A DNA stretch of 64,000 bases from Candidatus Multivoradales bacterium (GTDB taxonomy: Bacteria; Acidobacteriota; Thermoanaerobaculia; Multivoradales; J023): contig CBDFLE010000006.1 of the NCBI GenBank assembly GCA_965248925.1, positions 2,400,001 through 2,464,000 on the forward strand, written 5' to 3'. Shown here one piece after another: positions 3,306 to 64,000 of the stretch (positions within the stretch are counted from its first letter, which is position 1; the number at the start of each line of letters is the position of its first letter). Under the pieces are notes generated by a model. The model was not told the DNA's origin. It was given only the letters and a program-made list of their open reading frames with translations, and searched no databases. Both the position numbers and the translations under genes were made by a program.

Positions 3306-4331
3306 ATGGAAGATCTAGTAGATAGCACTCGCCGAAGCCCGGCTTTTTTGGAGAGATACCTGAAAGCCGTTGAGTCTGTGCGCCTAGAGAATCCTAAAGA
3401 GGCTTTCGAGATGGCCGAGACGGGTCTTCAGCTGGCAGCGCAGATCTCCCAAACCGTCTACGGATATCAGACTTGCCAATTGGTGATCGCCAAAGCTTGG
3501 GGCGCGCTGGGCGGCACCTTTCGTGCGATAAACCGGTTTGACGAGGCCGAGTGGTCTTACCGTACAGCAGCCTGCTATCTGAGATGGGCCGCAGCAGGGA
3601 AAGTCGAGAAGGCTGAACTCTGCCGTCGTCTGGCATTCCTGAGAAGAGACCAGGGAAAATTCCGGGAATCACGCCGCTTGCTAACCCTTGCAATCGAATT
3701 CTACCGCTCGGAACACCAAACCAGCCTCCTCGGCCAAGCGTTCGCCGATATGGGCCGAGTCCTTCTTACCGAGAGTGAAGATCCTCGGACGACTGAGCGC
3801 TACCTACTGCGCGCTCTGGATTGCTTGTCCGAAGAAGACGAGGCGTACGTCCTCTCGGTCCGTTTCAGTTTGCTTGCCCTCTACTGTGAACACGGCGGCG
3901 GTTTGGGCGAGCCCCAAGCGCTTCTAGAGCTGGTGCAGGAGATCAAGACGCACCCCATGTTCACCGAAGGTTCGGCTCTCCAGGCCGATGTTTTGCGGCT
4001 AGAAGGCTTAGCCCTCAACCGGGCCGGCAGACCGACCGAAGCAATTCGGATACTCGGCAGGGCACGGGATCTATTCCTCTGTCACGAAAATGGACTGCAC
4101 GTCGCAATAACGTCTATGGAGTTGGCAATGATCTGGCTTCAGCTCGGTTCCTACGAGGAATGCCAGCGCCTCGCTGGCGAGCTGTTCCCAATCTACAAGT
4201 CCCTGAAGAAGGATCGTGAAGCAGCAGCGGCCCTTGCGCTTTTCATCAAGAGCGCAACCGACGGCCAACTGGATGCGGCGGTCACTCGTCAAGCGTTGGC
4301 ACGCCTACAAACGCAAGTCAAAAATTCCTGA
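3306..4331 (+). CDS. TPR-repeat protein (paralog 1 of the local family)
   Basis: Helical repeats (AKAWGALGGTFR, LAFLRRDQGKFRES) and a C-terminal LAGELFPIY..DREAAAALALF block shared with 62194-63204. Start uncertain; the ORF opens at 3204. Confidence 0.75.
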   Translation: MEDLVDSTRRSPAFLERYLKAVESVRLENPKEAFEMAETGLQLAAQISQTVYGYQTCQLVIAKAWGALGGTFRAINRFDEAEWSYRTAACYLRWAAAGKVEKAELCRRLAFLRRDQGKFRESRRLLTLAIEFYRSEHQTSLLGQAFADMGRVLLTESEDPRTTERYLLRALDCLSEEDEAYVLSVRFSLLALYCEHGGGLGEPQALLELVQEIKTHPMFTEGSALQADVLRLEGLALNRAGRPTEAIRILGRARDLFLCHENGLHVAITSMELAMIWLQLGSYEECQRLAGELFPIYKSLKKDREAAAALALFIKSATDGQLDAAVTRQALARLQTQVKNS

Positions 4332-4333
4332 CC

Positions 4334-4738
4334 TTATTCTCTCCTGATTTGCTGCGCCTCAAGCTTGGTCCTGAGCCATCGGACCTCATCCGGTGCCAAC
4401 CGACCTGCATACATCTGATCCAGTCTTTCTAGGGTCTTGGCCAGCGCCGCTCGGACCTCCGGATTGTCCTCGGGAGTCCCCATGAACTCATCCAGCCAAT
4501 CCACCGGAACAGTCTCGGGACTCGCGTCAATGCCTTCAAGCGCGTTCTGTAAATCATGAAAATCGTACCCTAGCACTTCAAGATAGGCATTCAGACTCAT
4601 CACGTCGGGGGTCTCTTCGCCGCTCTCCCAGCGCTCTAGAACCTCGGCACTAGGGGCCGTATCGGCCAGCGCCGAGGCCTCGGCGCGGGTCATCTTGATC
4701 GAATCTCTCAGGGCTTTCAAGGCTTCAGCAACTCGCAT
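4334..4738 (-). CDS. XRE-family HTH protein, convergent with the TPR gene
   Basis: ALKALRDSIKMTRAEAS...LERWESGEETPDVMSL..YLEVLG is an HTH_3-like pattern. Confidence 0.7.
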   Translation of the reverse strand: MRVAEALKALRDSIKMTRAEASALADTAPSAEVLERWESGEETPDVMSLNAYLEVLGYDFHDLQNALEGIDASPETVPVDWLDEFMGTPEDNPEVRAALAKTLERLDQMYAGRLAPDEVRWLRTKLEAQQIRRE

Positions 4739-4758
4739 CTTGACGATAGCCTAGCAGG

Positions 4759-7677: not shown

Positions 7678-10600
7678 TCAAGGGGTAGCCTCGCCCGTGG
7701 CGCTCACCCGCAGTCGCGCACCGGCCGAATAAGCGGCGAATTCGGGCGCATACATCGACTGCACCTCGGCGGGGCCAACCCTGAAGGTGCCGGCATGAGT
7801 GGCTCGCAGTCGGTAGCGCAAGACCACCTCGCCGACCGGCAACCGCTCGAAGAAGAAGTTGGTAGCGCTGTCGCGCGGCTCCTCGTAATACCCCACACCC
7901 GTCTGCCAACGGTATCCCGAGCGTGGATTCTCGGGCTCGAATCCCGCCGCCCGCGGATCGCGCAGATGGACATACTCGGCGGCATGCTGGGTACGCAGCA
8001 CCAGCTCGACTTGCAGCTGGTCGCCGACCGCGATCTCGGCCGCGGCGACGAGCGGCTCGATCAACCACTCATGCCCATCGTGCCAACGGCGGAAGTAGCG
8101 ACGCTCGACGGCAAAGAAATCCCCCACCGCGGTTTCTGGCAAGCGTTCGCTAGAGAAATGCCAAGTCGCAGACGCGAACATCAAACCCGGGGTCTTCTTA
8201 GCCACCTCGATGCGGGCCATGGAAGGCTCGATCGCGGCTCCTTCGACCACCAACTGACGTCCTTTGCCGGTATAGCTATCGGGCTCGAAGACGAAGCGCC
8301 GGCGGCGTGAGCCGATTCGCACCACCGCTTCCTCGCGCACCGCCAGGCTCTGTTCGTCGGCCAAGTAGTGGGCCAGGGCGTAGACTACTTCGGCGGTGGC
8401 ACGGGTCGATTTCCAATGATTGAGCTTCTTGTTCAACATCAGCCATTGGGCTAGGCCGTGGCGGCGTGAGTCTTCGGGATCGATCTCCATCAGCGCGCGC
8501 AGGGCGAAAGCATGGCTCTCGATGGTGTCGTTGTACCACAGCCAAGAACGCTCCTCCGGCGCCCAATAAGTACCGAGTCGCGGATCGCTCTTGGCCGAAT
8601 CCATCAGACTGTCGAAAAGCAGCCGCGCATCCTGCTGCCGTCCCTGGCGATGGAGGGCCAAGGCCAGGTACGCCTTCAACCGCGGCGCCGCTTGGCGCCA
8701 GTGCTGGAAGCCGTGGTCGAGTAAGGCCCGCCGATCGTCATCGCTGAAGACTCCGTCGGTCCACGACGCGTCGGGATAGCTCGACAGCACGTAAGCCAGG
8801 TAGGCGCCAGTTGGCCAAGGTAAATTCTCGGCAAGACGCTCATCCCGGTCCAGGCGATAGCTCTGCTCGACATAGCGCCAGGCGCGGGCAACCAGCTGCC
8901 GCGGCACCTCGACGTCGTGTTCCAATGCCCGCGCTAGACCGTCGAGCAAATAGAGGGTGATGTAGGGCGAAGGCGGCCCGCCTGGCCACCAAGGGAAGCC
9001 GCCAGCGGCGGTCTGGACGCGCTCTAGTTCAGCCAAAGAAGTATCGCGCTGGGCGCGAGCGATCACCGGGTCCAACACCTTGATCAAGCCCTCGGCGGCG
9101 GCCTCGCCACCAGCTGCCGCCACCCTCCAGGGGGTTTCTTCGAGCAGCAACTGGCGGTTGGGATCCTCCTGCCGCCAAGCTTCCAGCCGCGTCTCGCGCT
9201 TCGCAAGATTCTCTGCCAGGCGGCTGATCGCCGGATATTGATCGAAGAGGGTGGCCACAATCCCGGTCGACAAGAAGCGATTCAGGGTTTGCTCGACACA
9301 CTCATAGGGGTATTCGACCAAGTAAGGCAAGGCGGCTAGTACGCCGTAGAAGAGCTGCCCGTCCAGGGTGACCACTAACTGCTCGTCGATCCGCGTCGGA
9401 TCGTCTTGGCGCGCCAAGTCGGCAAACTCCAACCGCTCGACCGCGTCACCCGACAGGGCGACGAAGCGACTTTGGGTCAAGTGCAAGCGGCTAGGCAGCA
9501 CCGCCAACGGCCGCACCTCGCCATCGCCCAGCGCACCCGCTCGAGCCATAACCCGCACCGCAAGGGGACCAATCCTTGGCGGTACGGTAAGCGCAAAGCG
9601 CAGCTCGCTGCCAGCGCCAGGTTCAACCGCGAAGGTCCGCCGCGCTTGCGCCGCGGTGAGGCCAAATTCCTCGAGCAAGCTGACCTCGGTCCGAGGATCA
9701 AAGAGCTCGAAGGTCAGCTCGCCGGCCAAGGGTCGGTCGCCAGCATTGTTGACCACAACCTCGATGGCGGTCTGGTCGCCGGCACGCAGGAAGCGCGGCA
9801 AGTAGGGCCGAACCAACAGATCCTTGACCGTCCGCGTCTCAGCCTGCGCTCGGCCCGAAGAAAACTCGCGGGTCAATGCGTGCGCCCAAACCCGCCACTC
9901 GGTCACCGAGTCCGGCACGGTGAACTGCAAAGCAACTCCTCCTTCCTCATCGGTCAGCAGATGGGGAAACCAGAAGGCGGTTTCGGAGAAATCACTGCGC
10001 AGTTCTGGCGCCGCGGTCGGCGGCGGCGCGGCGGGAGGGCGGGCCGATAAATCGGCCATTTCCGCTTGCACAACGACCGGAGTTTGGGCGCTGACCACCA
10101 CGGCCTCCGCCATCTCCTGCCCTTCTTGGGCCATCGCAGAAGAGCCGAAGACCTTCATTACCTGCCTTCCACGACGCCCGAAACCACCGATCGGATAGCT
10201 GTCGAAGAATTTCAGTCGATCGCCCTGAAAACTTGGAAAAGGAGGCAAATCGATCCACCCCTCGGCCCTATTCCACACCTGAGATGCATGGCCCAAAGAG
10301 CTACGAAAACCCAGACCACCGCCGTACACCGGATATACCGATCGCGGATCATGGGGGCGATGCTGAGCGAAGAGATCCAGACTGCGATCGTACATGTAGG
10401 CCAAGATCTCGGCCTCCCCAGCTCCTACCGGCTGTCCATCCTGGCGCCGCACCTCAAGTCGCCAGGTTTCGGCGCCGCCCGGCCGCAGGCGGTCGCGGAA
10501 GGTAGAGAAAGCCAGCTGCAAGTGACGGTTATCCCACGGCACGGCGATCTGCCGACTCAACGTCATCATTTGATGATCGCGCAGCGCTCGCAGCGTAACG

Positions 10601-13600
10601 CTGAACCCACCGCGCAGGCTGTCGTCGATAGATAGCTCTACAATTGCAGAGTCGTCGCCCGCCCGCAGCCGGCGGCGCTCGATCAGCGTTCCGTTACGCG
10701 CGATTTCGAGTTCGAGCGACAGGCCGTCCAGGGCCGAGAAGGCGAACACACGCAGCGTCTGGCCTACCCGCACCGTGCCTTCGTCGACCCCCAACAGCAG
10801 GGGCAAGGCCAGAGGCGTTGAGCGGTCGGCGACGACCACCAGTTCGCGCGCCACCTCGCAACGCTGGCCCCAGGCGTCGAGAGTCGAGTAGCGCAAGCGG
10901 TAGGCGCCCGGCGCCAAGTCACCAAGTTCGATCTCGGCCCGCCCACGCGCATCGTGGTTGAGTTCGCCCCGTGCCAACTCGGCACCATCCGGCCAACCGT
11001 GCAGCACCGCCTCGGGCTGGTAGGTAGGCTGCCAGCGAGGCCGCAGGAGATCGCCGGGGGTGTGAAACCAGTGCTCAACCGCGGCGCCGTGGGTTGGCGT
11101 AAAGGGCTGTTCGGCCGGCAACAGCGCTTCCTCTGGCTGCTGCAAACGCAGCAGTCGCCATTCCCCGCTGCCGGCTCGCGGCACCCTTTCGAGATCACGG
11201 CGCAAGACGCTCAGCGCCAGCGAGCGGCCGGCAAAGTGTGGGCTCGGACCTTCGATCTGCGCTTCGATGGCAATCAGGCCAAGGCGGAAAGCACGTTCTG
11301 CCGAGCGAGTCTCGCCACCTTCGTCGGTGACCTCGGCACTCAGCCGGTAGCGGTAGGAAAGCGCTTGATCTTCACCTTGCTCGTCTGCCTGCGGCAGAAA
11401 GCGCACCTCGAACCGACCCGCCGCGCTGAGTTCCGCGCGACCGGCGGCAACGGTCTGGGCCGGACCGCGCGGCCGGGGATTCCAGCCCCGCCACCAGGGC
11501 GGATAGACCGGCTCGCGCACCACCCGCCAATCGACCTTGCCAGCGCTGACTGGCAGGCCGAAGTAGTAGCGCGCGGAGCCTTCGAGCAGCGCTTCACGGT
11601 TGAGCCGCAAAGCACCGGGCGGATCGTCGATGGCGACCTCGAACGTGGGCCGCTTGTACTCCTCGACTTGCAGCGTGACCCAGCCGCCCAGGTCGGTGCC
11701 GAGGCTCCAGCTACCGAGCAAGCGACCCGCGGGCAAAGCAAACTCACCAGCGGCCGACCCAAAGGAGTTGGTCTCGGCCTCCACCTGGGCGATTTCCTCG
11801 CCATTGGCATCGCGCAGAACAACCTGCAAAGTGCGTTCGGGCAGCACTTCGAAACGCCCCGCCTCGCCGTTGCCGCCGTAGGCCACCACTTTCCACTTCA
11901 GCTGCTGGCCCGGCCGGTAGGCGCTGCGGTCGGTGTAGATCAGAACGTCTGTGCGTTGCTGCTGACCTACCCCCCGGTGCTGGCGGGGATAGGCATCGAG
12001 AAAGGCCACCTCGCGGCCACGCCGAGCCAGCAAGAACAGCTGGCCGCCGCCTCGCATCTCGGGCTGCGGCAGGATCAGAGAGCCGTCGCGGCGACTGCTC
12101 TGCTGCGCCAGTAAGCGCGGCGACCGCTGCCAGTCCATGACATAGAGCCCCACCTCGACGCCACCCACAGGCTCGCCGCTGGCTCCCGAACGCACCGCCA
12201 CCTCGGTGCGCCTCTCGGCGGTCGAAGTGCTCAACACCAGATCGCCAATGAAGATTTGAACGGCGGTCAATTGGTTGCGCTTGACCTCGAAATCGGCCCG
12301 AGCGGAGGCGACGACCAAGTAGGCGCCGGGCTCTTCGAAGGGAGGGTTGACGTAGGTGTGGTGGCGGCGCAAATCGAGGCTTTGAGGCAACTCGACGGAC
12401 CACTCGTGGATCGGCTGGCGCTTGGCAACCCACTGCCGCACCCGCTCGCCGCGGGGTAGCAGAGTACCCCGAGCATCGGCCAGCACACGATCCATGTCGA
12501 GCGCATAGGCGCGAAAAAATAGCCGTTCCAGATTGGCGTGGCCAAGCCGCATGGAGCGCTTATCCAATCCGTCCGAGAGCATCGCTTCGAGCTGGTAGGA
12601 CGGGGCGGTCAGCGACGCCATCAGATTCGCACAGCGGTGCCCACCCGGGCTCTGGGGATGCGCCTGCTGGCCTGCGCGGGCCACTTCGAGAGCCTGGACT
12701 AGGCTGTCCGGGGCGTTGCCGGAGCGGATCAACTCCGCCAGCTCCGCCTGACCCACCGCCCACCAGGGCAGGTGTCTACCGCTGCGCTTCAGGGCGGCTC
12801 GCAGATCAGCCTCGAGCAGCTGACGATCGGGCTGGCTGTCGAGATGAGGCCGCAGTCGCCGATGGCGCTCGAGGCGCGCCTCAAGAGCTGCTTCGGGCCG
12901 TTCGGCAGCAGCGTGCCAGGCCTCCAGATCACCCAAGATGGTGGCAACTTCGAGAAGTGGATGGGGGGCCGGCTCGGCCACCTTCGCGGTCGCTTGCGGC
13001 AACGAGCCAGCGGCGGCCAACAGGATCTTCCGGTCAAGACTGAAGACTCCATTGGCGGCAGCCGGACTCCATAATGAGGCGTCGGCGAGCAGCTCCACCC
13101 ACAGGTAGGTGAGGACATCGCGCAGCGTCCCTCGAATGCGCGGCGGATAGTCGTTGGACACCAGATACTCGGCCATTCGGCCCACCGGCCCGTCACCCCA
13201 CTGCTGGCGCCTGAGCCAGACCTTTTGGTAGCGGCGCTGGGCCGCGGTGACGATTTGCTCTTGGGTCCAGGTAGCTAGATCGATCTCCCCATCACCGGCC
13301 ACCCGCTCGCGCTGAGCAATCTCCCAGGAATAAGCGTGAAAGTAGTTCAGCAAGCTGCGGCCGACGAAGAGGTCCAGGGCTGACCGCTCGGGGTCGGCTT
13401 GCGGCCAAGACTCGGTGAGCAGCTGGCCCACCGCCTGCTCATAACCCCCCAACGAGGCGCGCAGCTGCGCCCCACGCACCAACGCCCGGCCCCAGGAACT
13501 TTGGTCACCGGCCGCGCGAGCCTTATCGAGCAGCCGCTCCACCCGCTCCAGCGCCGCCGCCATCTTCTGCTCAGAGATCAGCTGGTCGACCTGCTGCCAA

Positions 13601-13773: not shown

Positions 13774-14022
13774 GACCACGAGTCTATCGGCTGCATGCTG
13801 CCCCGGCTGGAGGAAGGTGATTCTGAGCCAGCCAGCGTAAACTTCCATGCCGCGATATTCAACGGCGTAAGCGGGCATCGGCGGCAATTACGCCTGTGGG
13901 TGACCTGCTGAATGGAAGATCAGCGTAAGTACCCGTTTACAGAAGAGGGTGGCTGCTGCTCAGGCACTCGCCGACATCGACACCCGCTCTGGAGCAAAGA
14001 AGCCAGCTTTGTCTTCACGATT

Positions 14023-17340: not shown

Positions 17341-17357
17341 GCCCCGAGGAAAAGACT

Positions 17358-31209: not shown

Positions 31210-31212
31210 CGC

Positions 31213-49935: not shown

Positions 49936-49960
49936 CATACAAGAACTGAGGAGAATTCCT

Positions 49961-50401: not shown

Positions 50402-50430
50402 TCGAATCACATATCTTCAGTAGCTTACGC

Positions 50431-51282: not shown

Positions 51283-51297
51283 CAGAAAGGAGGAGAG

Positions 51298-51906: not shown

Positions 51907-52005
51907 GAGTTTAGGGACGCGATCAAGATCGTATCGAAGGAGGCTCGTGACAATGCTTGGAACAAGAGCTAAACGCTGTCTTGTGCCCGACTAGCGTTCA
52001 GATTA

Positions 52006-53746
52006 CGCCACCAACGATCCGCAGCGCACGGTGAATTTCAACTACGAGAAGGGTATGCTCAGGTCCGTGCCTGGATTCGCCAACAACCTCACCTACCAGA
52101 GCGGCGACATGCTGCATCAGCTCACCCACAGCGATGGTGTGGTCGACACCCAACAAGTCAGCAGCTCCAACGGCCTAGCCAGGCCGCACCAGCTGACCAC
52201 CTCCGCGGGCTGGAGCAGCGGTAAGTTCTCCTACGACGGAGCCGGCAACATCTCGGCCATCGGCAACCTGGCCTACCGTTATGACCGCCTCGGCCGATTA
52301 CGCTCCGGCCAGACCTCCGTCGGCGCCACCCTCTTCACCCAGACCGCGAGCTACGACAATTTCGGCAACATCCAGCAGCTGTCGACGCCAGGTTTCTCAG
52401 CTCTCAACCTCAACCCCAGCGCCACCACCAACCGCTTCGGCCTCTCAGGCGCCCAGTACGACGCTGCCGGCAACCTGACCGACATCACGATCGGCAGCGA
52501 GAGCTTCGACTACGCCTTCGATGGCGCCAACATGATGAAGCACTTGCGCTCGAACACCGATCAAGCGCGGGTCTACATCTACAACGCCAGCGACGAGCGG
52601 ATCCTCACCTTCGACTGCTTCGGCGCCGGCGCGACCAGCACCTGCACCACCCAGCCCGCCAGTCTCACCTGGACCCTGCGCGGGCTCGGCAACGAAGTCC
52701 TGCGAGTCTACGATCAGCCGGCTGGCGGCGCCTTCAGCTGGAGTCGAGACTACGTCCATCGCGGCGGGCAACCGCTAGCCACCATCGAGCCCGACGGCAG
52801 CGGCGGCGAGATGACCTCACATCTCCATCTTGATCATTTGGGCACCCCCCGGCAGATCACCCGTGGTGGTCAGCAGGTTGCGTTGCACAACTACTACCCG
52901 TTTGGTCAGGAAGCGACCAGCGCGGCCCAGGACGAGGTCGTGCTGAAGTTTACCGGGCATGAGCGGGACAAGACGGGGACGGGGGCGAGGAGCGAGCTGG
53001 ACTACATGCATGCTCGGCATTGTAGTCCGGTGGTGGGGCGGTTCTTGAGTGTCGATCCGGCGAAGTCTGCTAAGACTGGCACACCACAAGGTTGGAATCG
53101 ATATATCTATGGTGCCAACAGCCCAATGACCTTCGTAGATTCAGACGGACTGGCACCAACTGCTGCCCAAGTGGCCTCGAGTGCCAGTGAAACGGCTAAG
53201 AAGCACATAGTTGCCGCTGCTGGGTTGGGGGGAGGATTCCACCCTGGGTTCGCCAATTTCATTGTTGGCGCTACTCTCGATGTTTTTTCGATGGGCGACG
53301 CGACCGGCGAGGCGATCGGGACAGGTGAGGGCCTTGCGGGTGCCGTAGTCTCTGACACGCTGAGAGTGGCTGCTCTTGCGGGAGGTCTTGGAGCGACCGG
53401 CAGGGCCCTTTCCCGAGGCGCAGCATCAGCGCGTACATTCCTAGGGGGCAGGCTCGTCGCCAATGAAGTATTTGTTGGGGAGATCGGCACCGCCAGAAAA
53501 CCTGTTGAGATATTTGCGAAAGTCACATTCGAAGGAAAGACTCTTCGCCTGGACAAATTGGCTATCTTCCCAAAAGGAGCTGAAAGCCTTCAGTTGGGTC
53601 CACGGCAAATCTTGGCAGCAAGGAAAGCCCTTGAAGCAGAGGCAAGGCGACTAGGGTTTACGAAAATACGGCTCACGGTGAGCCGCCTAAGCGGCGCCAA
53701 CCCAGGAAGAACTTTCGACTTAGTCATTGACCTAGTGAGGCAATAA
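52006..53746 (+). CDS. Orphan RHS cassette 4: Gly/Ala-rich linker + small basic C-terminal domain
   Basis: Core repeat, PMTFVDSDG, then an unknown C-terminus ending GANPGRTFDLVIDLVRQ. Confidence 0.85.
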
Positions 53747-53759
53747 GAGGCGTGTTAAA

Positions 53760-53978
53760 ATGAACTACGAGAGATTACTAACAAGGCTTCGTAGCGAAGG
53801 CAATTCCAAGATTCAATCGATGAAGATACTTGTTGAAACAACAGATATTTCCATTGACGAGGTGAAGAATGTTGTTCACAGAAGTAGGACTTGGAAGGAT
53901 GTTGAGTCTCAAGATGATAACTTTCATGACGCGCTGGAAAGATCGAGCGATTTCTTAGCTCGGGTATCCACCGACTAG
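53760..53978 (+). CDS. Small cytoplasmic putative immunity protein
   Basis: Follows cassette 4; low GC; SKIQSMKIL..ISIDEVKNVVHRSRTW. Confidence 0.65.
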   Translation: MNYERLLTRLRSEGNSKIQSMKILVETTDISIDEVKNVVHRSRTWKDVESQDDNFHDALERSSDFLARVSTD

Positions 53979-54009
53979 GTGCTGAGAAGTGCTGCCGCCG
54001 AGAGCGTGC

Positions 54010-55048
54010 CACCCACCTCGGCAAGACCCTGCGTGGGCTCGGCAACGAAATCCTGCGAGTCTACGATCAGCCAGCTGGCGGCGCATTCGGCTGGGCCCGA
54101 GACTATGTTCATCGAGGCGCACAGCTGCTAGCCACCATCGAGCCCGACGGCAGCGGCGGCGAGATGACCTCGCACCTGCACCTTGATCATTTGGGTACGC
54201 CTCGGCAGATCACTCGGGGTGGTCAGCAGGTGGCGTTGCACAGCTACTACCCCTTTGGTCAGGAGGCGACCAGCGCGGGTGCTGATGAGATTCAGCTTAA
54301 GTTCACCGGCCATGAGCGAGACAAGACCGGAACCGGGGCGAGGAGCGAGCTGGACTATATGCACGCACGGTATTGCAGTCCGGTGCTGGGGCGGTTCTTG
54401 AGTGTCGATCCTGTAGCCAAGGGTGAGGAGAGCAGACCACAGAGCTGGAATCTGTTTTCATACGCAGGGAATAGTCCGACAAACAGACTCGATCCCGATG
54501 GTAGAAAGGATCGAAGGACAAGCCAAGAAGTAGTGCTGACGGAGGACGCGGACGTTCAGATTGCGATTTTAGAGATTCTTAGGCAGACGCTCTTAGATAG
54601 GCCGGTGCTCCAGCGTCAAGAGGCTGGCGTAGTAGTCACAGAGGATGGTCCAAATGACTTCGGGCTAGACACGGGTGGAGTAAAGACAGATGGGAACCTT
54701 ACTCAAATTACCTTTCGTCTTCGCAAGAAAGCAGACGGCGCGATCGTTGGATTGAATAACAATCGGGTAGCTGCAACGATCCATAGTCATGTAGGAACAG
54801 CTAGAGTGGTCATAGATGGGCAGAGAAAAACGTTGGCCGGAGGGATTCCCAGCCCAGCAGATCGAAGTCAAGCCAAGGCGATCGGCGTGCCAGTTCTGAT
54901 TCTCAACGGGGAGAGGAGTATCATCAAGGTCGAGTCTGTTGGAAACAGCACGCGGTCTACGGTGATCCTCTCTGGTCGAGACATGAGGAGCTACCTACAA
55001 CGAGCGCGTGCCGCTGCCGCACCGCCAACTGGAGACCTAAATGATTGA
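54010..55048 (+). CDS. Orphan RHS cassette 5: JAB/MPN-like C-terminus
   Basis: Frameshifted core fragment, PTNRLDPDG, then QEAG...TIHSH...PSPAD. Confidence 0.75.
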
Positions 55049-55544
55049 TTCGAGAATTGTCTTTCTGGCTCTAGCTCTAGTGGCTTTCCAGTCTTGGCCT
55101 TGCTTTCTCTCCGCGACCGAGGAAGAGAGCATCGGCGACCCAGGGTGCCCTGTCAGGTTCGGTCGAGTTTATAGAAATGAGGGCGCCACCATACTGGAAG
55201 TATTACCTTCAGATCTGCCAGAAACAATCGAGATTCTCGACCAGCCAGATGGTGCCGCGATCTTCAGAGCAGAGTCCGAAGACCCCACCGCAGTCTACGG
55301 CACCTTTTTCCTAGAACCACCAGTTGCAACCAAGACAAGCTTCTTTCCGAGATCAGGACTGAGCGCAGCGACTTGGGTCACGGTAACGTCAAATATTGGT
55401 CTTGTGGAACAGATTCCAGCAGGGATCTACCGACTGAAATTACAATATATAGGTCGTCATGAAAATGGAAGCAAGATCAAAGTTTGCCTTGCAATCTCCC
55501 CGACATTTGTCGAAGACGAGGAGTCGTTATATACGTTTCACTGA
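55041..55544 (+). CDS. Putative secreted immunity protein
   Basis: Overlaps the toxin stop; signal peptide; paired Cys residues. Confidence 0.65.
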   Translation: MIDSRIVFLALALVAFQSWPCFLSATEEESIGDPGCPVRFGRVYRNEGATILEVLPSDLPETIEILDQPDGAAIFRAESEDPTAVYGTFFLEPPVATKTSFFPRSGLSAATWVTVTSNIGLVEQIPAGIYRLKLQYIGRHENGSKIKVCLAISPTFVEDEESLYTFH

Positions 55545-55639
55545 AGCGGGGTGGCAGCAAGCACGAAGACGGAGATGCCGATCGCGGGTCAGAGCTTTTG
55601 GCCTGTGCTAGTCTTGAAATGAAGGCGTCAGGGGAGATC

Positions 55640-55875
55640 AGGAGGATATAACCAGGAAGAGCCCTCGGTCTGGTCGTTGACATTGTCAAGCAAGGGAAGC
55701 ATATCCACATGAAGGATGAAAAACTTCGGAGGCAACTCAGGGCGAAGATAAATTCAACGATTCAATCCATGAATATACTCTTCGGGACAAGTAAGTGCCT
55801 CGTTTGGCGAAGTTAAGGGCATGGTTCACAGAAGTGGAGATTGGCAAGAAGTCGAGCCTCAAGTGATAGTTCTAA
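55640..55875 (+). pseudogene. Eroded copy of the cassette-4 toxin tip and its immunity gene
   Basis: CCAGGAAGA..GTCGTTGAC, GATTCAATC.ATGAA.ATACT and GTTCACAGAAGT match 53700-53925, with indels. Confidence 0.65.
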
Positions 55876-56140
55876 CGGCCATCAGAAACCGGTGTAGTTT
55901 GGCCACTTCGCTCTTTTTTCCCAAGAACGGACTATGGTCTACGGCCATAGCAAACGCTGGCGGGCGGCCTCAATGACGAAGGTGGATCAGAGGCCGGAGC
56001 ATCGAAAAGTCCAAGATTTTCGGCGTCTTGGGAACTCTGAAAGGAAGAATTCGCGCCTGACCAACTTGCATCGAGCTGAACGAACTGAACCGAGCATGTA
56101 TGGGAGGGTCCAATCTTGGCTCGCCAGTTGCGTAGAAACC

Positions 56141-57561
56141 CCTCAGTCGGTGCCACCCTCTTCACCCAGACCGCGAGCTACGACAATTTCGGCAACATCC
56201 AGCAGCTGTCGACGCCAGGTTTCTCAGCTCTCAACCTCAACCCCAGCGCCACCACCAACCGCCTCGGCCTCTCAGGCGCCCAGTACGACGCTGCCGGCAA
56301 CCTGACCGACATCACGATCGGCAGCGAGAGCTTCGACTACGCCTTCGATGGCGCCAACATGATGAAGCACTTGCGCTCGAACACCGATCAAGCGCGGGTC
56401 TACATCTACAACGCCAGCGACGAGCGGATCCTCACCTTCGACTGCTTCGGCGCCGGCGCGACCAGCACCTGCACCACCCAGCCCGCCAGTCTCACCTGGA
56501 CCCTGCGCGGGCTCGGCAACGAAGTCCTGCGAGTCTACGATCAGCCGGCTGGCGGCGCCTTCAGCTGGAGTCGAGACTACGTCCATCGCGGCGGGCAACC
56601 GCTAGCCACTATCGAGCCCGATGGCAACGGCGGCGAGATGACCTCACAGTTGCACCTTGATCATTTGGGCACTCCCCGGCAGATCACGCGTGGTGGTCAG
56701 CAGGTGGCATTGCACAACTATTACCCGTTTGGTCAAGAGGCGACCAGCGCGGGGGCTGACGAGATTCAGCTGAAGTTTACCGGGCATGAGCGGGACAAGA
56801 CGGGGACGGGAGTGAGGAGCGAGCTGGACTACATGCATGCTCGGTACTGTAGCCCGGTGCTAGGGCGGTTCCTGAGCGTTGATCCGGCGAAGTCTTCCGT
56901 TTTGACCCAGAGCACAACCTGGAACCGGTACTCCTACGTTTCCAACAATCCGCTGCGCTACAATGATCCTTCGGGTCTACGCCAGAACCCAGTGACTGGA
57001 GGCAGGGGGATCAACTCAAAACCTGCCAACGGCGTTTTTGGAAGGATCAGGAGAAATAGCTCAAACCCGAGAATCGGTCTCTTCGGGAGAACACGGCGTT
57101 TCGCAAGTGGGAAACCTCGCCCTCACTCTGGCCTCGACATCAACGCGCCTGTTGGAACCCGCTTGTTCGCGGCAGAGGGGGGAACAGTCAGTCTCCGAAC
57201 GAATGTTCTTGCTGGTAACCAGCTCGTGATCAGGACATCCTCGGGTACCCAATTGTTCTATTCTCATCTCAATGGCTTCGCACCAGGATTGAAGAACGGA
57301 GCTACCGTGCTCGAGGGTGAAGTCATCGGAGCGTCAGGCACCACGGGAAACGCAATGGGTATAGCAACTTCGGAGGAGCATCTACATTTCACAGTCAAGG
57401 GTCCTGGTGGCGTAAGAGTAGATCCGTTGATCTGGCTCAATGACCCATACGAGGCCGATCCTAGAATCTCTTCAGAGCCACCGCCTGCACCATGTCAATG
57501 CAGTACAAACCCTCCAGACCTTCAAGGAGCGCTGATCCAGCTCTATCTCCAGGAGCCATAG
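56141..57561 (+). CDS. Orphan RHS cassette 6: M23 peptidase C-terminus (paralog of cassette 1)
   Basis: DPSG, HSGLD and HLH motifs. Confidence 0.85.
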
Positions 57562-58157
57562 TGAGACATTTGGCAATAATCGTCCTCGCGGCCTTTGGCT
57601 GCTCACAAATCTTGGGCCAGTCTACGTCGCCGACTAGTTTGGACATCCATCAACTCTCAGAATTGTTACTTGTACCTCCCAACCGACTGGTCTACGAGCT
57701 GGGTTCCCCAGAGTTGGTTTTTCTCGATGGAGCTGACTCAGAAGGCCCTCCAACGCCTCATGATGGTCTTGAATTTCGCTACTCGATTGTTCTCTGGGCA
57801 AAGAGGCCCTATCCGGCCACGGTGTGGGTTCACCTTGACGCAAACTCCTTTCTTGTGAAGGCGATCAACCTTGAATTCTCCGGCCCAAGACCCGAGTTAG
57901 CAGAGTTGGAGACAGCAGCTGATGCACCAAAGCGCATAGTAGAGCATGTGATGATCTGGGATGAAGGCGAGCTGGAGGGCTGGCTGAGCGAGTGCCACCA
58001 TCCTGGCGGCCCAATTCAGAGCTGGGTGTTTCAGGATCTCGGGCTTCAGGTTCTGTTGGAAGAGGGTGCTGGCTCTGAGAAGCCGGTCGTAGACCTACTC
58101 TCGTTCTCGGCGCAGATCAAGTCTGGCGGACTTAGCTTTCCACCCTGCGACGACTAA
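57561..58157 (+). CDS. Putative immunity lipoprotein (paralog of 47363)
   Basis: LAAFGC lipobox; GADSEGPPTP and IWDEGEL.GWLS.CHH. Confidence 0.72.
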   Translation: MRHLAIIVLAAFGCSQILGQSTSPTSLDIHQLSELLLVPPNRLVYELGSPELVFLDGADSEGPPTPHDGLEFRYSIVLWAKRPYPATVWVHLDANSFLVKAINLEFSGPRPELAELETAADAPKRIVEHVMIWDEGELEGWLSECHHPGGPIQSWVFQDLGLQVLLEEGAGSEKPVVDLLSFSAQIKSGGLSFPPCDD

Positions 58158-58187
58158 GGGCCCGCGAAAAGACAACTTCCGAGTACC

Positions 58188-58402
58188 GACATCCAGAATC
58201 CCCTGGCCCCCGAGCCCGGCTCCCTCGACGTCAAGCTCTCAGAGAGCTTCCGCTACACCGGTCGTCAGGGCCTGATGTCGGAGAAGCAGACCCGCTATCA
58301 GTTCTTCGCCGGCAACTACGCCTTCACCACTGGCTTTGGCTATGACACCCAGGGCAACTTGTCGCAACTCGACTACCCCGACTGCCAGCAGGCCGATGGC
58401 GG
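58188..58402 (+). pseudogene. Truncated RHS core fragment
   Basis: Starts at the same junction as cassette 2 (GTACCGACATyCAGAATCCC) and ends after QADGG. Confidence 0.75.
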
Positions 58403-58431
58403 CTTAGGGGTTCTTCGGAGGGTCAAACGAA

Positions 58432-58734
58432 GTGAAACGACTTATCCTCGTCATAACACTGCTCGCGTTTTCACTTGTAGCGTATGCCGAGCACACACCG
58501 GTTGCGGAGTGGCTGAAGACATACAACAACTCGGTCGATCAGCCCTTCTTGACTGCGGTCGAGCTGAGGGCAGAGCAAGCGCTGACTATTCTCGAACGGC
58601 TGGGTATCGAGCCCGGTAAGGCTCAGACACCTAACTCTACGTCGATACGGGCGACTGCCGATGCCTGGGAAACAACGTTCCAATCTCCCTTTCGTCGAGC
58701 TGGATGGCCAGCGGCCAGCGGAAACCGCTGGTGA
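58432..58734 (+). CDS. Small secreted hypothetical protein (possible orphan immunity, possibly truncated)
   Basis: GGAGG RBS; signal peptide MKRLILVITLLAFSLVAYA. Confidence 0.5.
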   Translation: MKRLILVITLLAFSLVAYAEHTPVAEWLKTYNNSVDQPFLTAVELRAEQALTILERLGIEPGKAQTPNSTSIRATADAWETTFQSPFRRAGWPAASGNRW

Positions 58735-59204: not shown

Positions 59205-59969
59205 TCACCTTGCCTCTCGCTGGGCGGCCTTGCGAATACCGCCGGCTCTCTTCGCCCGCATGGAGTCACCGTCCACCGCGAGCTTGTAGGCGCCGTGGAC
59301 AATGCGATCGAGGATGGCGTCGGCCAAGGTCGGATCGCCGATGACCTCGTACCAGCTCTCAACCGGTAGCTGGGAGGTCACCAGCGTGGAGCGGTTGCCG
59401 TAGCGGTCCTCAAGAATCTCGAGCAGGTCGCGCCGCTCGCTGGCCCCGATCGGCGCCAGCCCCCAGTCGTCGAGGATGAGCAGGTCTGTGCGAGCATAGC
59501 TCTTGAGCAGCTTCTCGTAGCTACCATCACCCCGCGCGATGGCGAGCTGGCGAAACAGCCTCGGCACCCGCAGGTACAAAGCGGTGTAACCCTCCCGACA
59601 TGCCTTGTGCGCGAAGGCGCAGGCGAGAAAGGTCTTGCCCACCCCGGCCTTGCCGGTGATCAGCACGTTGAGATGCTCGGCGATCCACTGGCACGAGGCC
59701 AGGCGCAGGATCTGGCCTTTGTCCAGGCCCCTCTTGGCTCGCCAGTCGATGTCTTCGATGGCCGCCTGCTCGCGCAGCTTGGCTTTTCGCAACCGCGCTA
59801 TCAAGCGGCGGCTGGATCGCTCGGTCGCTTCGCGCTCGACCAGCAGCCCGAGGCGCTCTTCGAAGGAGAGCTCTGAGACATCGACCATCGACAGCTGCTC
59901 CTCAAAGGCTTTGGCCATACCGTGGAGCTTGAGCGCGGCGAGTTGATCGAGCGTCGCGTGCCTCAGCAT
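59205..59969 (-). CDS. istB: IS21 helper ATPase
   Basis: GKAGVGKT, LLILDDWG and DAILDRIVH. Confidence 0.95.
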   Translation of the reverse strand: MLRHATLDQLAALKLHGMAKAFEEQLSMVDVSELSFEERLGLLVEREATERSSRRLIARLRKAKLREQAAIEDIDWRAKRGLDKGQILRLASCQWIAEHLNVLITGKAGVGKTFLACAFAHKACREGYTALYLRVPRLFRQLAIARGDGSYEKLLKSYARTDLLILDDWGLAPIGASERRDLLEILEDRYGNRSTLVTSQLPVESWYEVIGDPTLADAILDRIVHGAYKLAVDGDSMRAKRAGGIRKAAQREAR

Positions 59970-61537
59970 GGCGGCGTCTCCTCGCGGCGCGCGGCACTGT
60001 AGTAGCTGGCGCCGCGGACGTTGTGGTGCTCGATCGGCGCCGTCACTTCGGTGGGCTCGGGCGCTGCTTGCTGGTCCAGGCCGCTCTTCAGGATCGACTT
60101 CACGCTCTTGTAGGACAGGCCGTGAATGGCGAGCGCGCGGCGGCACGCAGCCTCCAAACGATTGGCACCATAGGTCTTGCCCAGGCGCATCAGCCCCAGA
60201 CACGAGCGAAAGCCGTGCTGAGGATGGGAGCGGTTAAGCATGATGGTCTCCACCAGTTCGGCCGTCGCCTGGCCTGTTTTCGCCGCCCAGCTGATCAGCC
60301 GTGTCGGTGTCCACTCCAGGTACGCCTGGTGCGCTTTGGGCATGTGCTCGCTCTGGGTCGTGTGCCGACCCCGACACCGATTGCGACGATGAGCAGCCAC
60401 ACGCTTGCCGCGATCGAGCACCTCCACCAGTTGCGCCGTCGCCCGCAGATCGAGCTGCTTCTTGATCAGCTGGTACGGCACACTGTAATAGTGGCCCTCG
60501 AACTCGACGTGGTAGTCCGGGGCAACGCGTACCTTCTTCCATTCGGCAAGCTCGTAGGGCTGGAGCGGCAAAGCACCCAGAGCAGGACGATCGACCTGCT
60601 CGAACAGCGCTCGGCGCGAGACGCCCAACACCTTCAGCGGACGGTCGTTAAGCTCGACCAGAAGCTTCGCGATGCTCTCGTTGAGCTCTCGCAGGCTGAA
60701 GAACTGCTGGTTACGCAGCCGGGCCAGAATCCAGCGCTCCACTTGCAATACACCGTTTTCGACCTTCGCCTTGCCTTGGGGCTTCCTCACCCGCGCCGGC
60801 ACCACCGCCACGCCGTAGTGCTCGGCCAACTCCGCGTAGGTGCGATTGATCTCCGGCTCGTAGCGGCACGGGCTGGTCACGCCGCTCTTCAGATTGTCCG
60901 GCACCACCAGCTCGCTCACCCCGCCCAGAGCCGCGAAGGTCCGCACATGAGAGCCGATCCAGTCCTCCAGGCCCTGGCTCCACGTTGATTCGGCATAGGT
61001 GTAGTTGCTCGCCCCCAGCACCGCCACGAAGATCTGCGCTTCGCGCGCTTTGCCAGTCGCCGGGTCGATCACCCTCACGGTCTGTCCGGCATAGTCGACG
61101 AACAGCTTCTCGCCCGCCCGGTAGGCTTGGCGCAGGCACACATCCAGGCGCCCTTCCCAGATCCGGTACAGCTGACAGAAGCGGCTGAAACCGTAGCCGT
61201 CAGGATGGTCCTCCCGGTACTCTTGCCACAGCAGCGACAGGGTTACGCCCTTCTTCTTCAGCTCGCCATGCACCTTGGTCCAGTCGGGCAAGGCTCGCTG
61301 ACCACCCCTCCGAAGCGGCTGCGGCCGAGGGTACAGGCGTTGCTCCAGCTCAGCGTCGCTCAAAGCTGCTACTTGCTCCCAGCTCAGGCCTTCAACCTTG
61401 GCTCGCAGCAGGTAGTTGCACACCGTCCCGTGGCCCAGCCGAACCGACCGTCCGATCTGGCGGTGCGACAGGCCATGCTGCCATTTCAGTCTCAGTACCT
61501 CGCGTATCTTGCGCATCGATGTCCTCACTCTCGGCAT
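59963..61537 (-). CDS. istA: IS21 transposase
   Basis: FVDYAG, VPDNLKSGV and KAKVE. Confidence 0.95.
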   Translation of the reverse strand: MPRVRTSMRKIREVLRLKWQHGLSHRQIGRSVRLGHGTVCNYLLRAKVEGLSWEQVAALSDAELEQRLYPRPQPLRRGGQRALPDWTKVHGELKKKGVTLSLLWQEYREDHPDGYGFSRFCQLYRIWEGRLDVCLRQAYRAGEKLFVDYAGQTVRVIDPATGKAREAQIFVAVLGASNYTYAESTWSQGLEDWIGSHVRTFAALGGVSELVVPDNLKSGVTSPCRYEPEINRTYAELAEHYGVAVVPARVRKPQGKAKVENGVLQVERWILARLRNQQFFSLRELNESIAKLLVELNDRPLKVLGVSRRALFEQVDRPALGALPLQPYELAEWKKVRVAPDYHVEFEGHYYSVPYQLIKKQLDLRATAQLVEVLDRGKRVAAHRRNRCRGRHTTQSEHMPKAHQAYLEWTPTRLISWAAKTGQATAELVETIMLNRSHPQHGFRSCLGLMRLGKTYGANRLEAACRRALAIHGLSYKSVKSILKSGLDQQAAPEPTEVTAPIEHHNVRGASYYSAARREETPPC

Positions 61538-61765
61538 CCAATTCTCCTTTCAAGGAGGCTGGAATACCCCAATTGTGAGGAGCGCGCTACCGTCGAACTC
61601 CGCCGTGGCCAGGATTCCGATCCAATCTGACCACCCATTCCGATCGACCCGGAAAAGTGGTCACTTTCGATCGGAATCGATGGTCAGATTCCGTTGGAAT
61701 CACTGGTCACTTTCAATCGGAATCGGTGGTCGGTTTCCGTCGGTGCAGGCAGTAGAGTAGGCCGC

Positions 61766-62193: not shown

Positions 62194-63204
62194 GTGGAGC
62201 CACTCAACGTCGATGGGTGCCGGCGGCTACTCGGCGAGGTCGAGGAGGTACGCCAGCATAGCCCCGGTCTGAGCTTGCAGATGGCGACGGAAGTGCGCCA
62301 ACTGGCGGCCGGACTGGATCGGTCCGAGGCCGGAGAGAGCAGTTGGTTGGAACTCCAGGCTGAAGTGTGGATCGTGCTGGCCGGGATCTACCGCTCGCTC
62401 GACGACCTCGGGCAAACCGAAGCGGCCCTCAACGTGGCGCTTGCCTTCCTCGATCAACGGCAGCAGCCGGCCAGCTGCTCGCCAATCCACGCTCGCCTGG
62501 CCTGTCGCGCCGCCTACCTGCGGTGCGACCAGGGCAGAACGGCCGAAGCCCTGGCTTTGATCGATGAAGCGATCGGCATCTACCGGCGACTGGGTTTGCT
62601 GGTGTCCGCGGCTCGGGTCGACCGGGCGGTCATCTTGACTCGGGCGGGGCGACCCACGGCAGCGATCGACGCCTTATGTAGCGCCCTCGACACCCCTGGA
62701 ATCGGCTCCCAACCCCTCATTTTTCTGGCCGCCATCCACAATATGTCCTGGCTGTTGCAGCAGCTGGCCAGCACCACCGCCGAGACCCGCGAGGCACTCG
62801 GTTGGCTGCGCTTGGCGGTGAGATTGCACACCTTAGTGCCTGAGAAGCTCAACCTGTTCAAGCTGCATGGATTGCTCGGCATCACCGCCTTCAAGCTCGG
62901 AGCGGTCGACGAGGCCACCGAGCACCTATGGTTGGCCCACGGCGGTTTCCGCCGTCTGGGAGCCACCCGCGAACAGGCAGGGGCGTTGCTCGAGATCGCC
63001 GCCATTGAACTGTCGCGGGGTGCGGCTCAAGCGGTCAAACGGCTGGCTGGGCACCTGTTCTCGATCCTCCGTCACCCAGCTCTTCCCCGCGACTGCGCTG
63101 CCGGCCTACTGCTCTTTGCCCGCGCCGCCCAAGCAGAGCGCGCCACTCCCGAACTGGTCCGTGGAGTCCAAGCGCGACTCGATCGCTGGGACGATCCGGG
63201 CTGA
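62194..63204 (+). CDS. TPR-repeat protein (paralog 4)
   Basis: AEVWIVLAGIYRS, AYLRCDQGRTAEA and LAGHLFSIL..PRDCAAGLLLF; same family as 3306. Confidence 0.8.
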   Translation: MEPLNVDGCRRLLGEVEEVRQHSPGLSLQMATEVRQLAAGLDRSEAGESSWLELQAEVWIVLAGIYRSLDDLGQTEAALNVALAFLDQRQQPASCSPIHARLACRAAYLRCDQGRTAEALALIDEAIGIYRRLGLLVSAARVDRAVILTRAGRPTAAIDALCSALDTPGIGSQPLIFLAAIHNMSWLLQQLASTTAETREALGWLRLAVRLHTLVPEKLNLFKLHGLLGITAFKLGAVDEATEHLWLAHGGFRRLGATREQAGALLEIAAIELSRGAAQAVKRLAGHLFSILRHPALPRDCAAGLLLFARAAQAERATPELVRGVQARLDRWDDPG

Positions 63205-63268: not shown

Positions 63269-63274
63269 GAGGGC

Positions 63275-63310
63275 TCAACCGCCTGGTTCGATCATGAACG
63301 GATGTTTCAT
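63275..63310 (-). CDS. Putative 11-aa micropeptide MKHPFMIEPGG
   Basis: GAGGAG RBS (63317-63322) 6 nt before ATG; TGA is followed within 6 nt by the long hairpin; AT-rich region upstream. Confidence 0.55.
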   Translation of the reverse strand: MKHPFMIEPGG

Positions 63311-63614
63311 CGACTGCTCCTCGTGGTTGGTTGATAGATCTCTGGAAACCCGCTGCGAGTTGCCAAAACCTAGTCACCCAGAGCCAAATTTGCGACGGAA
63401 GAACCTATTAAATAAGAAATATTTGGTTTATTCAGAGATTATCTTGAAATACTTAATTCTCTCGCCTATGATCCGAGCAGGCCAACCAAGCAATATTGAG
63501 ACGCACTATTTGGCCAGCGTCTTGGAGCGGACAACGTCTTGGATCGAGTGGGATGGTGAAGCGTGCGGGGGTTGCAGTTCAACCGCCGGCTTCAGCCCCC
63601 GAAGGAGGGATGAG

Positions 63615-64000
63615 ATGCCGGAATCCGGCCGCCTGTGGGTCGATCGGAACTTTGTATCGAGGCTGCTGCTCGGAGCTCTTAGCGAGCACGAACAGCGCCT
63701 CCTGGTAACCCGCCTACTGCCCCACGACGCTCAGCTTCGGCAACAGATCCTGTCGCTCGTCGGCCCCTTTCAGAGTTTCGATGGCGACCTGATGGAGCGC
63801 TTCTCCACCAGCCTGACAGAGGATTTGGACTCCACCGAAGTGCGCCGCGAACTGATTGACCTAGGCCGCGCCCGAGCGCCGGACTTGGAAAGGTTGCTAC
63901 GCGACTTCTCCTTTGGCGACCTGTTCCGACTCGGCCCGGCCACCCAGCGCATCTTCTCCTGGACGACGGCCGAGCTTCTGCTGAGCCGCAGCTGCGAGCA
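63615..64000 (+). CDS. Probable TPR-family paralog 5 (N-terminus only; runs off the window)
   Basis: AAGGAGG RBS. RLLLGALSEHEQRLLVTRLL and FSWTTAELLLSRSCE resemble RLACLGRLEPKPARRLIGHL and ALFHLLLQQCRSE of the 34459 protein. Confidence 0.55.
   Translation, partial: MPESGRLWVDRNFVSRLLLGALSEHEQRLLVTRLLPHDAQLRQQILSLVGPFQSFDGDLMERFSTSLTEDLDSTEVRRELIDLGRARAPDLERLLRDFSFGDLFRLGPATQRIFSWTTAELLLSRSCE

Follow-up and report, generated by a model that had tools for sequence, protein, structure and literature searches.

The 64,000-nucleotide stretch analysed here (the window, C6:2400001-2464000) lies on one of the six contigs (C4, C5 and C6 below) of an 8.0-Mb genome with 62% G+C and a completeness of 96.9%. 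It contains four genes, T1 to T4 (T2 as a pseudogene), that are assigned on sequence comparison to one large family with a common C-terminal tetratricopeptide repeat (TPR) domain of approximately 320 residues. The genome holds 45 full-length copies of the family, and 22 of them are found within 5 kb of an RHS gene. The members are most likely one-component-type transcription regulators. The best explanation of the data, to which we give an even chance, is a regulator family of which one clade has been built into the RHS cassettes of this lineage. The link to RHS genes is a lineage-specific observation of this genome and is not replicated in its relatives. The host organism is probably an acidobacterium of the class Thermoanaerobaculia; the best matches of its ActD protein come from metagenome-assembled genomes (MAGs) of Thermoanaerobaculia and other Acidobacteriota, with 54-59% identity.

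The family was delimited with a strict filter that demands a near full-length domain match, C-terminal placement and a protein of fewer than 650 residues. This filter was adopted because an iterative profile run without restraint spread to 208-227 generic TPR proteins of the host genome. It yields 43 open reading frames (ORFs), and with T2 and T3 the count is 45 copies. The matches are collinear over 310-324 positions and always C-terminal, in proteins of 300-600 residues whose identity to T4 is 13-27%. On the 324-position family profile A1, T1 covers positions 1-317 (E 1.3e-74), T4 positions 3-316 and T3 positions 2-259 (E 1e-64). By BLASTP, T1 shares 27% identity with T4 over 332 residues (E 3e-15) and 23% with T3 over 316 residues (E 1e-6), and T2 is joined to the family through paralogues that match both T1 and T2 (C6:3821932, C6:3817833 and C6:619021) as well as by the family profile. 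A C-terminal block is common to T1 (LAGELFPI, seven residues, REAAAALALF) and T4 (LAGHLFSI, seven residues, RDCAAGLLLF), in a region where the family consensus has a conserved C-terminal stretch. An earlier note on this DNA, made from the sequence alone, had recognized this block, although it gave three residues instead of seven for the gap between its isoleucine and its arginine. Neither Pfam nor NCBIfam holds a dedicated model for the family, which is matched there by generic TPR models and, below threshold, by TPR_MalT.

The predicted DNA-targeting modules of the family are interchangeable and comprise XRE-like helix-turn-helix (HTH) domains, AraC-type HTH domains and extracytoplasmic function (ECF) sigma factors, which are either fused to the TPR domain or encoded by an adjacent gene. 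Among the 43 strict members the N-terminus is XRE-like in 19, of AraC type in 10 and of a second, unnamed type in five; three (including T1) are unclassified, five consist of the TPR domain only, and one is a fusion of sigma70 regions 2 and 4 of ECF type with the family TPR domain (C6:2668857-2670197). This diversity bears out the earlier proposal of an expanded, modular one-component regulator family.

The window displays several of these arrangements, most of which the earlier note had outlined. In T3, an AraC-type HTH (HTH_18, 49.9 bits at residues 111-180, cut-off 33.6) precedes the TPR domain, as had been read; its ORF begins at 34312, the gene as called publicly has 524 residues (record P0113), and the host genome has about 20 paralogues. 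T4 (TPR_12, 30.7 bits) is abutted by X4, whose stop codon ends 2 bp ahead of the T4 start. X4 is the adjacent XRE gene of the earlier note, and its HTH is XRE-like but divergent. X4 has no HTH_3 match at E <= 1 and its best HTH model, HTH_31, reaches 13.5 bits versus a cut-off of 27; it shares 36% identity over 61 residues with the HTH of T2, matches the N-termini of fused XRE-TPR members with phmmer, and has a paralogue just outside the window that attains 25.3 bits with HTH_3 (cut-off 23). The predicted complex of T4 and X4 scored 0.05 versus a mark of 0.32, which counts neither for nor against their pairing. T1 (TPR_12, 36.6 bits, cut-off 30.1) has an N-terminal lead of 50 residues and a convergent neighbour, X1, in accordance with the earlier description, although the HTH_3 score of X1 (20.7 bits) is just under the cut-off of 23 and its match to an MqsA-family HTH (E 3e-6) is likewise under cut-off. 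A single paralogue of X1 is found at C6:967293, where a TPR ORF comes after it. Finally, the XRE-type HTH attributed to T2 is indeed fused to the TPR domain (HTH_3, 31.7 bits, cut-off 23), but the gene is on the minus strand and broken.

The host genome contains 94 RHS-related ORFs at some 40 loci. Proximity was counted with RHS ORFs of at least 500 residues, and the background consisted of ORFs of 300-650 residues (Table 1). The enrichment anticipated in the earlier note is found in this genome: at 5 kb, 22 of the 45 family copies are near an RHS gene, versus 6.5% of the background (Fisher p 2e-14) and versus 12 of 76 pooled mobile-element genes (16%; p 1e-4). Nineteen of the 22 are upstream of the RHS gene, 12 of them on the same strand at 97-3982 bp (nine at 97-564 bp) and seven divergently. 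A tandem array at C4:167608-284747 and C5:5-60994 comprises nine units, in most of which an RHS ORF (up to 5,114 residues) comes after an XRE-TPR gene, with a DCoH-like gene divergent from this regulator-RHS pair. The end of C4 and the start of C5 are both inside RHS ORFs, and the two contigs may join. When the family is clustered at >= 50% identity, 13 of 30 clusters have an RHS-adjacent member. Within the window, only T2 and T3 are less than 5 kb from an RHS gene. The earlier note had two copies just upstream of RHS loci and one after the RHS array; T3 is indeed upstream of RHS gene 2 (4.0 kb), whereas T2 is divergent from RHS gene 1 at 2.1 kb, and T4 sits 8.4 kb beyond the last RHS ORF of at least 500 residues, with an IS21 element between them.

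Table 1. Family members and comparison sets near RHS genes in the host genome, by distance.
Set	n	3 kb	5 kb	10 kb
TPR regulator family	45	17	22	24
Background ORFs	2879	133 (4.6%)	186 (6.5%)	315 (10.9%)
Generic TPR proteins	164	3	6	12
IS21	33	4	6	13
Transposase_29	34	3	4	7
Group II intron reverse transcriptase	9	1	2	4

The T2 locus is a decayed copy of a second type of cassette, in which the regulator is transcribed divergently from a DCoH-like gene, orfB and an RHS gene arranged head to tail. T2 itself is a pseudogene with one frameshift and an insertion of a 247-bp repeat. Its pieces align in order with intact paralogues, one of which (L040) matches it by tblastn at 61% and 44% identity in two different frames. 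The frameshift is reproduced, since contigs from four runs of one sample match positions 14474-15800 with no difference and no gap. On the other side of the divergent region, orfA encodes the DCoH-like protein, and its ORF continues to 16564 through a low-complexity tail. The next gene, orfB, has no Pfam match and recurs with 96-97% identity at C6:1049236 and C6:4913333, each time immediately ahead of an RHS gene. RHS gene 1, which shares 86-89% identity with RHS genes at C6:1049847 and C6:4913944, is interrupted by a group II intron (reverse transcriptase with RVT_N, RVT_1 and GIIM domains; nine copies in the host genome), and the RHS operon has decayed.

The DCoH-like protein is the small partner of the regulators in both cassette types. 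Pterin_4a matches it above the cut-off of 26 bits (29.1 bits for orfA and 40.5 bits for a C4 copy), and it matches solved PCD chains. Of the 20 copies in the host genome, 16 have a strict family member no farther than 2 kb away, and another three stand next to family fragments. The His-His-Pro motif of PDB 2ebb, the histidines of which we take to be catalytic, aligns to Leu-Glu-Pro in the C4 copy, and for this reason catalysis by the DCoH-like protein appears unlikely; in orfA, the residues at the place of the motif, judged by eye, are Ile-Thr-Pro. The gene also differs from DCoH/PCD genes in its linkage, which is with HTH-TPR regulators and not with the metabolism of aromatic amino acids. In mammals, DCoH serves as a protein-binding cofactor of transcription. 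The DCoH-like protein has a weak match (E 0.95) to the 80-residue PDB chain 1uso, titled hepatocyte nuclear factor 1-alpha.

The intergenic regions between the DCoH-like gene and the regulator harbour candidate operators. The palindrome GAGGACT-N3-AGTCCTC has seven exact copies in 8 Mb, all in DCoH/regulator intergenic regions, three of which contain two exact copies 33 bp apart; because the cassettes are recent duplicates, this exclusivity is not independent evidence. TCAGCA-N4-TGCTGA also has seven copies, and six of these form pairs 43 bp apart in three DCoH/regulator regions. The pairs are specific to the subtype and are found in two cassette subtypes. Such paired, helically phased palindromes would be the arrangement expected of operators for HTH dimers. 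In the window, a survey of inverted repeats upstream of T1, T3, orf159 and X4 and between T2 and orfA revealed nothing clearly operator-like except the terminal repeats of the IS21 element; GGGTA-N5-TACCC at position 15772 has only three copies in the genome.

T3 is accompanied by a different small partner. The downstream gene orf159 encodes a helical protein of 159 residues with no Pfam match, whose family comprises 11 ORFs at 10 loci of the host genome, mostly just downstream of AraC-TPR members. For eight of the 11, a strict family member is no more than about 2.1 kb away, and a ninth stands next to a family fragment. The best score of orf159 in the ESM Atlas is 0.88, with clusters that are all without a name, and is to be read as a lead only.

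The domain is not confined to the host. It occurs in 20 of the 21 related genomes compared (the host included), with 2-79 matches each at E <= 1e-10, and the family profile found 4,817 representative clusters (50% identity) at E <= 1e-30 among 1.84 billion proteins. Many of these clusters display single-stretch C-terminal matches in proteins of 440-600 residues, and the remainder are long multi-repeat TPR proteins. A public protein search with L040 returned records of the host genome only, one with profile A2 gave eight matches, of which one is named and comes from a Thermoanaerobaculia MAG, and a related-loci search with T3 alone found no relative. The surroundings of the 40 best matches from 18 related genomes were retrieved with 9 kb per flank where the contig permitted, together with a second set of 20 further full-length XRE-TPR matches; 145 of 150 neighbour ORFs were scanned, the five largest being left out. 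The family gene is fused to an AraC-type HTH at 15 of the 40 loci. At five of them (L042, L051, L064, L077 and L079) a co-oriented gene for an ECF sigma factor directly adjoins the start of the family gene, a location typical of anti-sigma factors; several sigma genes stand in a row at L042 and L064. Another group of loci (L047, L048, L057, L065 and L076) has an RNase E/G gene, a Kdo/WaaP-like kinase gene (about 740-790 residues), an AraC-TPR gene and a sulfatase gene in synteny across genera, and looks like an orthologous family member unconnected with RHS.

The structure of the TPR domain was predicted with AlphaFold2. The model of the T4 domain (mean pLDDT 94.2) consists of 17 helices that form roughly eight repeats, and that of a full-length XRE-TPR paralogue (pLDDT 87.7) has a helical domain at the N-terminus and then the TPR domain. 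In a Foldseek search the leading matches were LGN/Pins (TM 0.70) and Rap proteins (TM 0.58-0.61). Structural alignment with representatives gave Z values of 23.8 for APPBP2, 21.0 for Rap (root mean square deviation 3.9, 275 residues), 18.1 for LGN, 18.0 for NprR, 17.2 for domain III of MalT (chain 1hz4), 16.3 for PlcR and 15.9 for AimR. The comparison with RRNPP receptors and MalT proposed in the earlier note thus finds a likeness to both. The predicted domain resembles peptide-binding TPR sensors and, equally, unrelated TPR superhelices.

One known parallel is with the RRNPP receptors (Rap, NprR, PlcR, PrgX and AimR). T2 and its intact paralogues share with them an N-terminal XRE-type HTH and a C-terminal TPR sensor, and by analogy the family plausibly works in the same manner, a partner in the TPR groove switching DNA binding. 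T1 and T4 differ in having no fused HTH. Moreover, no member matches an RRNPP family of Pfam or NCBIfam, no propeptide gene came to light (no search aimed at micro-ORFs was made), the domain is also joined to AraC or ECF sigma modules or stands alone, and the host is probably an acidobacterium and not a Firmicute or its phage. MalT provides a further example of a TPR-like sensor on a transcription factor, and TPR_MalT (PF17874) matches many members below threshold (best 32.6 bits versus a cut-off of 45, none of them in the window). Unlike MalT and other STAND proteins, T1 to T4 and the 35 paralogues scanned contain no NTPase (NB-ARC or AAA) and no LuxR-type HTH. T3 and 10 paralogues have an HTH_18 match above cut-off and in this respect resemble AraC/XylS regulators, but the aligned members carry the AraC HTH at the N-terminus and the TPR superhelix at the C-terminus, whereas in typical AraC proteins the HTH comes second, behind a cupin or another ligand domain. 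The sigma-TPR fusion of the host recalls the ECF42 sigma factors, which bear C-terminal TPR extensions regarded as built-in regulators (PMC7826278); most members here carry an HTH instead, and the relatives often encode the sigma factor separately, in the gene upstream.

Several observations weigh against the explanation given at the outset. In the relatives, an RHS gene is found within 9 kb at one of the 40 best family loci (L080) and at none of the 20 XRE-TPR loci; conversely, none of 20 RHS loci from eight of these genomes, for which roughly 20 kb was fetched, has a full-length family member. Many of these assemblies are fragmented, and RHS genes are difficult to assemble, but full flanks were still obtained for most loci, and RHS matches are present in 18 of the 21 genomes searched (the host included). 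The profiles of the DCoH-like protein and orf159 each match only two of the 60 relatives' loci, counts that may be underestimates, as both profiles were built solely from paralogues of the host. Within the host, duplication inflates the counts: many adjacent pairs are recent co-duplicates, and with single linkage at 35% identity just 5 of 16 clusters still have an RHS-adjacent member. The AraC type shows hardly any enrichment, with 3 of 11 members within 5 kb. In the window, T1 and T4 lie away from RHS genes, the nearest to T1 being at 12.9 kb, and T3 is parted from its RHS gene by a transposase. The structural matches, too, are generic to TPR superhelices, and equally high Z values are reached by unrelated TPR proteins of eukaryotes such as APPBP2. 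The earlier suggestion that the family may control contact-dependent toxins is accordingly upheld only as a strong association in the host genome and not in the relatives, and contact dependence of the toxins is not established. Delivery of the RHS proteins by a type VI secretion system was considered and set aside, as the host genome has no match to the sheath protein TssC.

In the explanation that we prefer, the HTH or sigma module would bind DNA and the TPR groove would bind a peptide or protein partner that switches the regulator. The XRE-like HTH would be the fused one in T2 and would be supplied by the abutting X4 for T4 and by the convergent X1 for T1; T3 would use its AraC-type HTH, and elsewhere an ECF sigma factor, fused or from the gene directly upstream, would take this place. 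In the cassettes, the regulator and the presumably non-catalytic DCoH-like gene would be transcribed divergently from a region of 160-260 bp, which in two subtypes holds the two copies of the palindrome. The RHS gene would come after the regulator in the nine tandem units of C4 and C5 and after the DCoH-like gene in T2-type cassettes, including the decayed one in the window. Family membership, architectures, copy numbers, the enrichment near RHS genes in the host, the partner genes and the palindromes are shown by the data; we infer that the palindromes are bound and that RHS expression is controlled, and likewise what the signal is and what the DCoH-like protein does. A bolder version, which we rate as improbable, is that HTH-TPR regulator and non-catalytic DCoH-like protein form a dedicated two-gene switch at the paired, subtype-specific palindromes, one before each of at least nine giant RHS genes (2,500-5,100 residues) of the tandem array, such that the cell could choose its toxin. 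If true, the cofactor principle of DCoH/HNF1 would have a counterpart in bacteria, used there for the choice of a polymorphic toxin.

The main rival is that the regulators control themselves and their small partners (the DCoH-like protein and orf159), the RHS genes being expressed independently and brought close by co-amplification of cassettes in plastic regions rich in insertion sequences. We lean against this account, although it is the strongest of the alternatives and the one favoured by the missing link in the relatives (RHS near one of 60 family loci, the family near none of 20 RHS loci). It would also agree with the tighter bond of the partners than of RHS (16 of 20 DCoH-like and 8 of 11 orf159-family ORFs within about 2 kb of a family member), with the position of the palindromes between regulator and DCoH-like gene and not immediately ahead of the RHS gene, with the mild enrichment of mobile-element genes near RHS, and with the placement of nine of the 22 adjacent copies in one tandem array. 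Hitch-hiking of this kind is more difficult to reconcile with an adjacency that exceeds that of the mobile-element genes, with the involvement of several regulator clades (XRE-like and AraC) and three RHS size classes, and with the consistent order of the genes (19 of 22 upstream). The T2-type cassette likewise speaks against it, since there the DCoH-like gene, orfB and the RHS gene succeed one another in a single orientation, leading away from the divergent promoter.

Other rivals concern the mode of action rather than the RHS genes. The TPR domain might hold or release a protein, be it its own or a neighbouring DNA-binding module such as X4, an ECF sigma factor or the DCoH-like protein, with no small ligand involved, and the split pairs would then be regulator and anti-regulator. 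The role of mammalian DCoH as a protein-binding cofactor and the weak 1uso match are in line with this, as are the ECF sigma genes in the classical anti-sigma position at five of 40 relatives' loci, the sigma-TPR fusion of the host with its ECF42 precedent, and the 2-bp spacing of X4 and T4; yet Pfam detects no anti-sigma domain in the N-terminal regions and most members have an HTH of their own, and we consider this account unlikely. Peptide quorum sensing of the RRNPP type, in which the receptor senses a secreted peptide from an adjacent micro-ORF, is less probable still. The XRE-HTH and TPR architecture is that of PlcR, NprR and AimR, and the best structural matches include Rap, NprR, PlcR and AimR, but no RRNPP-specific family is matched, and the conserved small neighbours are a DCoH-like and a 159-residue helical protein, unlike a short propeptide gene. 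According to the RRNPP_Detector paper (PMC10075063), RRNPP systems are those of Firmicutes and of the mobile elements of this group, whereas the ActD of this host is nearest to Acidobacteriota MAGs. Least credible of all is that T1 to T4 form no family and share what any TPR proteins share. The drift of the unrestrained profile to more than 200 TPR proteins and the low identities to T4 would suit this notion; the collinear, C-terminal matches over the whole 310-324 positions, the shared non-repeat features such as the C-terminal block, and the different result for generic TPR proteins in the neighbourhood test (6 of 164) speak against it.

The regulation of RHS and other polymorphic toxin loci is poorly understood. 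A comparative survey of polymorphic toxin systems from 2012 knew of no immunity protein that functions as a transcription factor (PMC3482391), and a full-text literature search, without supplements, yielded no publication in which RHS genes are connected with TPR-HTH regulators or with DCoH-like proteins. The host genome offers a tractable case, with about nine near-identical regulator/RHS units with candidate operators and decayed copies, one of which is in the window, within the limit that the RHS link is lineage-specific. Beyond RHS genes, the family represents a single sensor domain that serves XRE, AraC and sigma outputs alike; it is abundant in a phylum that has received little study, and no curated model covers it.

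Table 2. Features of the window, in window coordinates.
Feature	Position	Strand	Description
T1	ORF 3204-4331, Met 3306	+	TPR-only family member, 341 residues from Met 3306
X1	4334-4738	-	small probable XRE-type HTH protein, convergent with T1, gap 2 bp
T2	15604-14023	-	XRE-TPR family pseudogene
T2, HTH part	15604-15143	-	frame -1
T2, first TPR part	15149-14607	-	frame -3
T2, C-terminal part	14340-14026	-	frame -2
Multi-copy repeat, 247 bp	14312-14558		inserted in T2
orfA	15866-16180	+	DCoH / pterin-4a-dehydratase-like small protein, divergent from T2
orfB	16669-17340	+	223-residue protein between orfA and RHS gene 1
RHS gene 1	17280-20254	+	N-terminal parts, RHS_repeat matches; interrupted by group II intron
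Group II intron reverse transcriptase/maturase	20846-22396		after the N-terminal parts of RHS gene 1
T3	34312/34459-36033	+	AraC HTH, then family TPR domain
orf159	36468-36947	+	159-residue helical protein downstream of T3
Transposase	37412-39805	+	Transposase_29, between T3/orf159 and RHS gene 2
RHS gene 2	40015-45033	+	1672 residues, RHS_repeat matches
Orphan RHS fragments	47782-49935 and 52031-53746		downstream of RHS gene 2
DUF6438 proteins	45060, 51298		orphan RHS array
Peptidase_M23 genes	45882, 56116		orphan RHS array
IS21 element	59205-61537	-	IstB 59205-60203, IstA 59963-61537
X4	61694/61760-62191	+	divergent XRE-like HTH protein, abuts T4
T4	62194-63204	+	TPR-only family member
T5	63615-64187 (window part 63615-64000)	+	190-residue ORF outside the family

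The fifth TPR paralogue of the earlier note, T5, has to be removed from the family. This ORF has no Pfam or NCBIfam match and no paralogue in the host genome, and hhalign gives a probability of only 0.2% for its alignment with the family profile; on these comparisons its reading as a truncated TPR protein, as a sigma factor or as an HTH protein is rejected. Beyond the window, at 64230-64703, a second X4-like HTH gene lies between T5 and an ABC transporter gene, without a TPR neighbour.

Mobile elements are found at several of the loci described. The IS21 element ahead of X4 has an IstB_IS21 match of 256 bits, and rve and Mu-transposase C-terminal domains; its inverted terminal repeats (61613-61724) overlap the start of the long X4 ORF, and the first 20 codons of the ORF at 61694 recur at more than 25 places with 90-100% identity. 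The transposase between orf159 and RHS gene 2 (Transposase_29, 257.6 bits) has 34 copies in the genome. The 247-bp repeat in T2 is 99% identical to C6:4919212-4919458, with more copies at C6:1479834-1480697 and C6:423564; its contig depth is 47-87 versus 16-20 in the flanks (three to five times), and it is possibly similar to a miniature inverted-repeat transposable element.

Among the other genes of the window, an operon resembling alternative complex III (26696-34105, minus strand), with ActD, NrfD-like, 4Fe-4S and multihaem cytochrome genes, is divergent from T3, which could equally act on the promoter of this operon. Downstream of RHS gene 2, an orphan RHS array extends over 45060-58619, in which C-terminal RHS fragments alternate with DUF6438 genes, M23 peptidase genes and small ORFs. 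A gene on the minus strand at 7678-13887, between T1 with a helicase gene and T2, encodes an alpha-2-macroglobulin of 2,069 residues with MG2, A2M and bMG10 domains.

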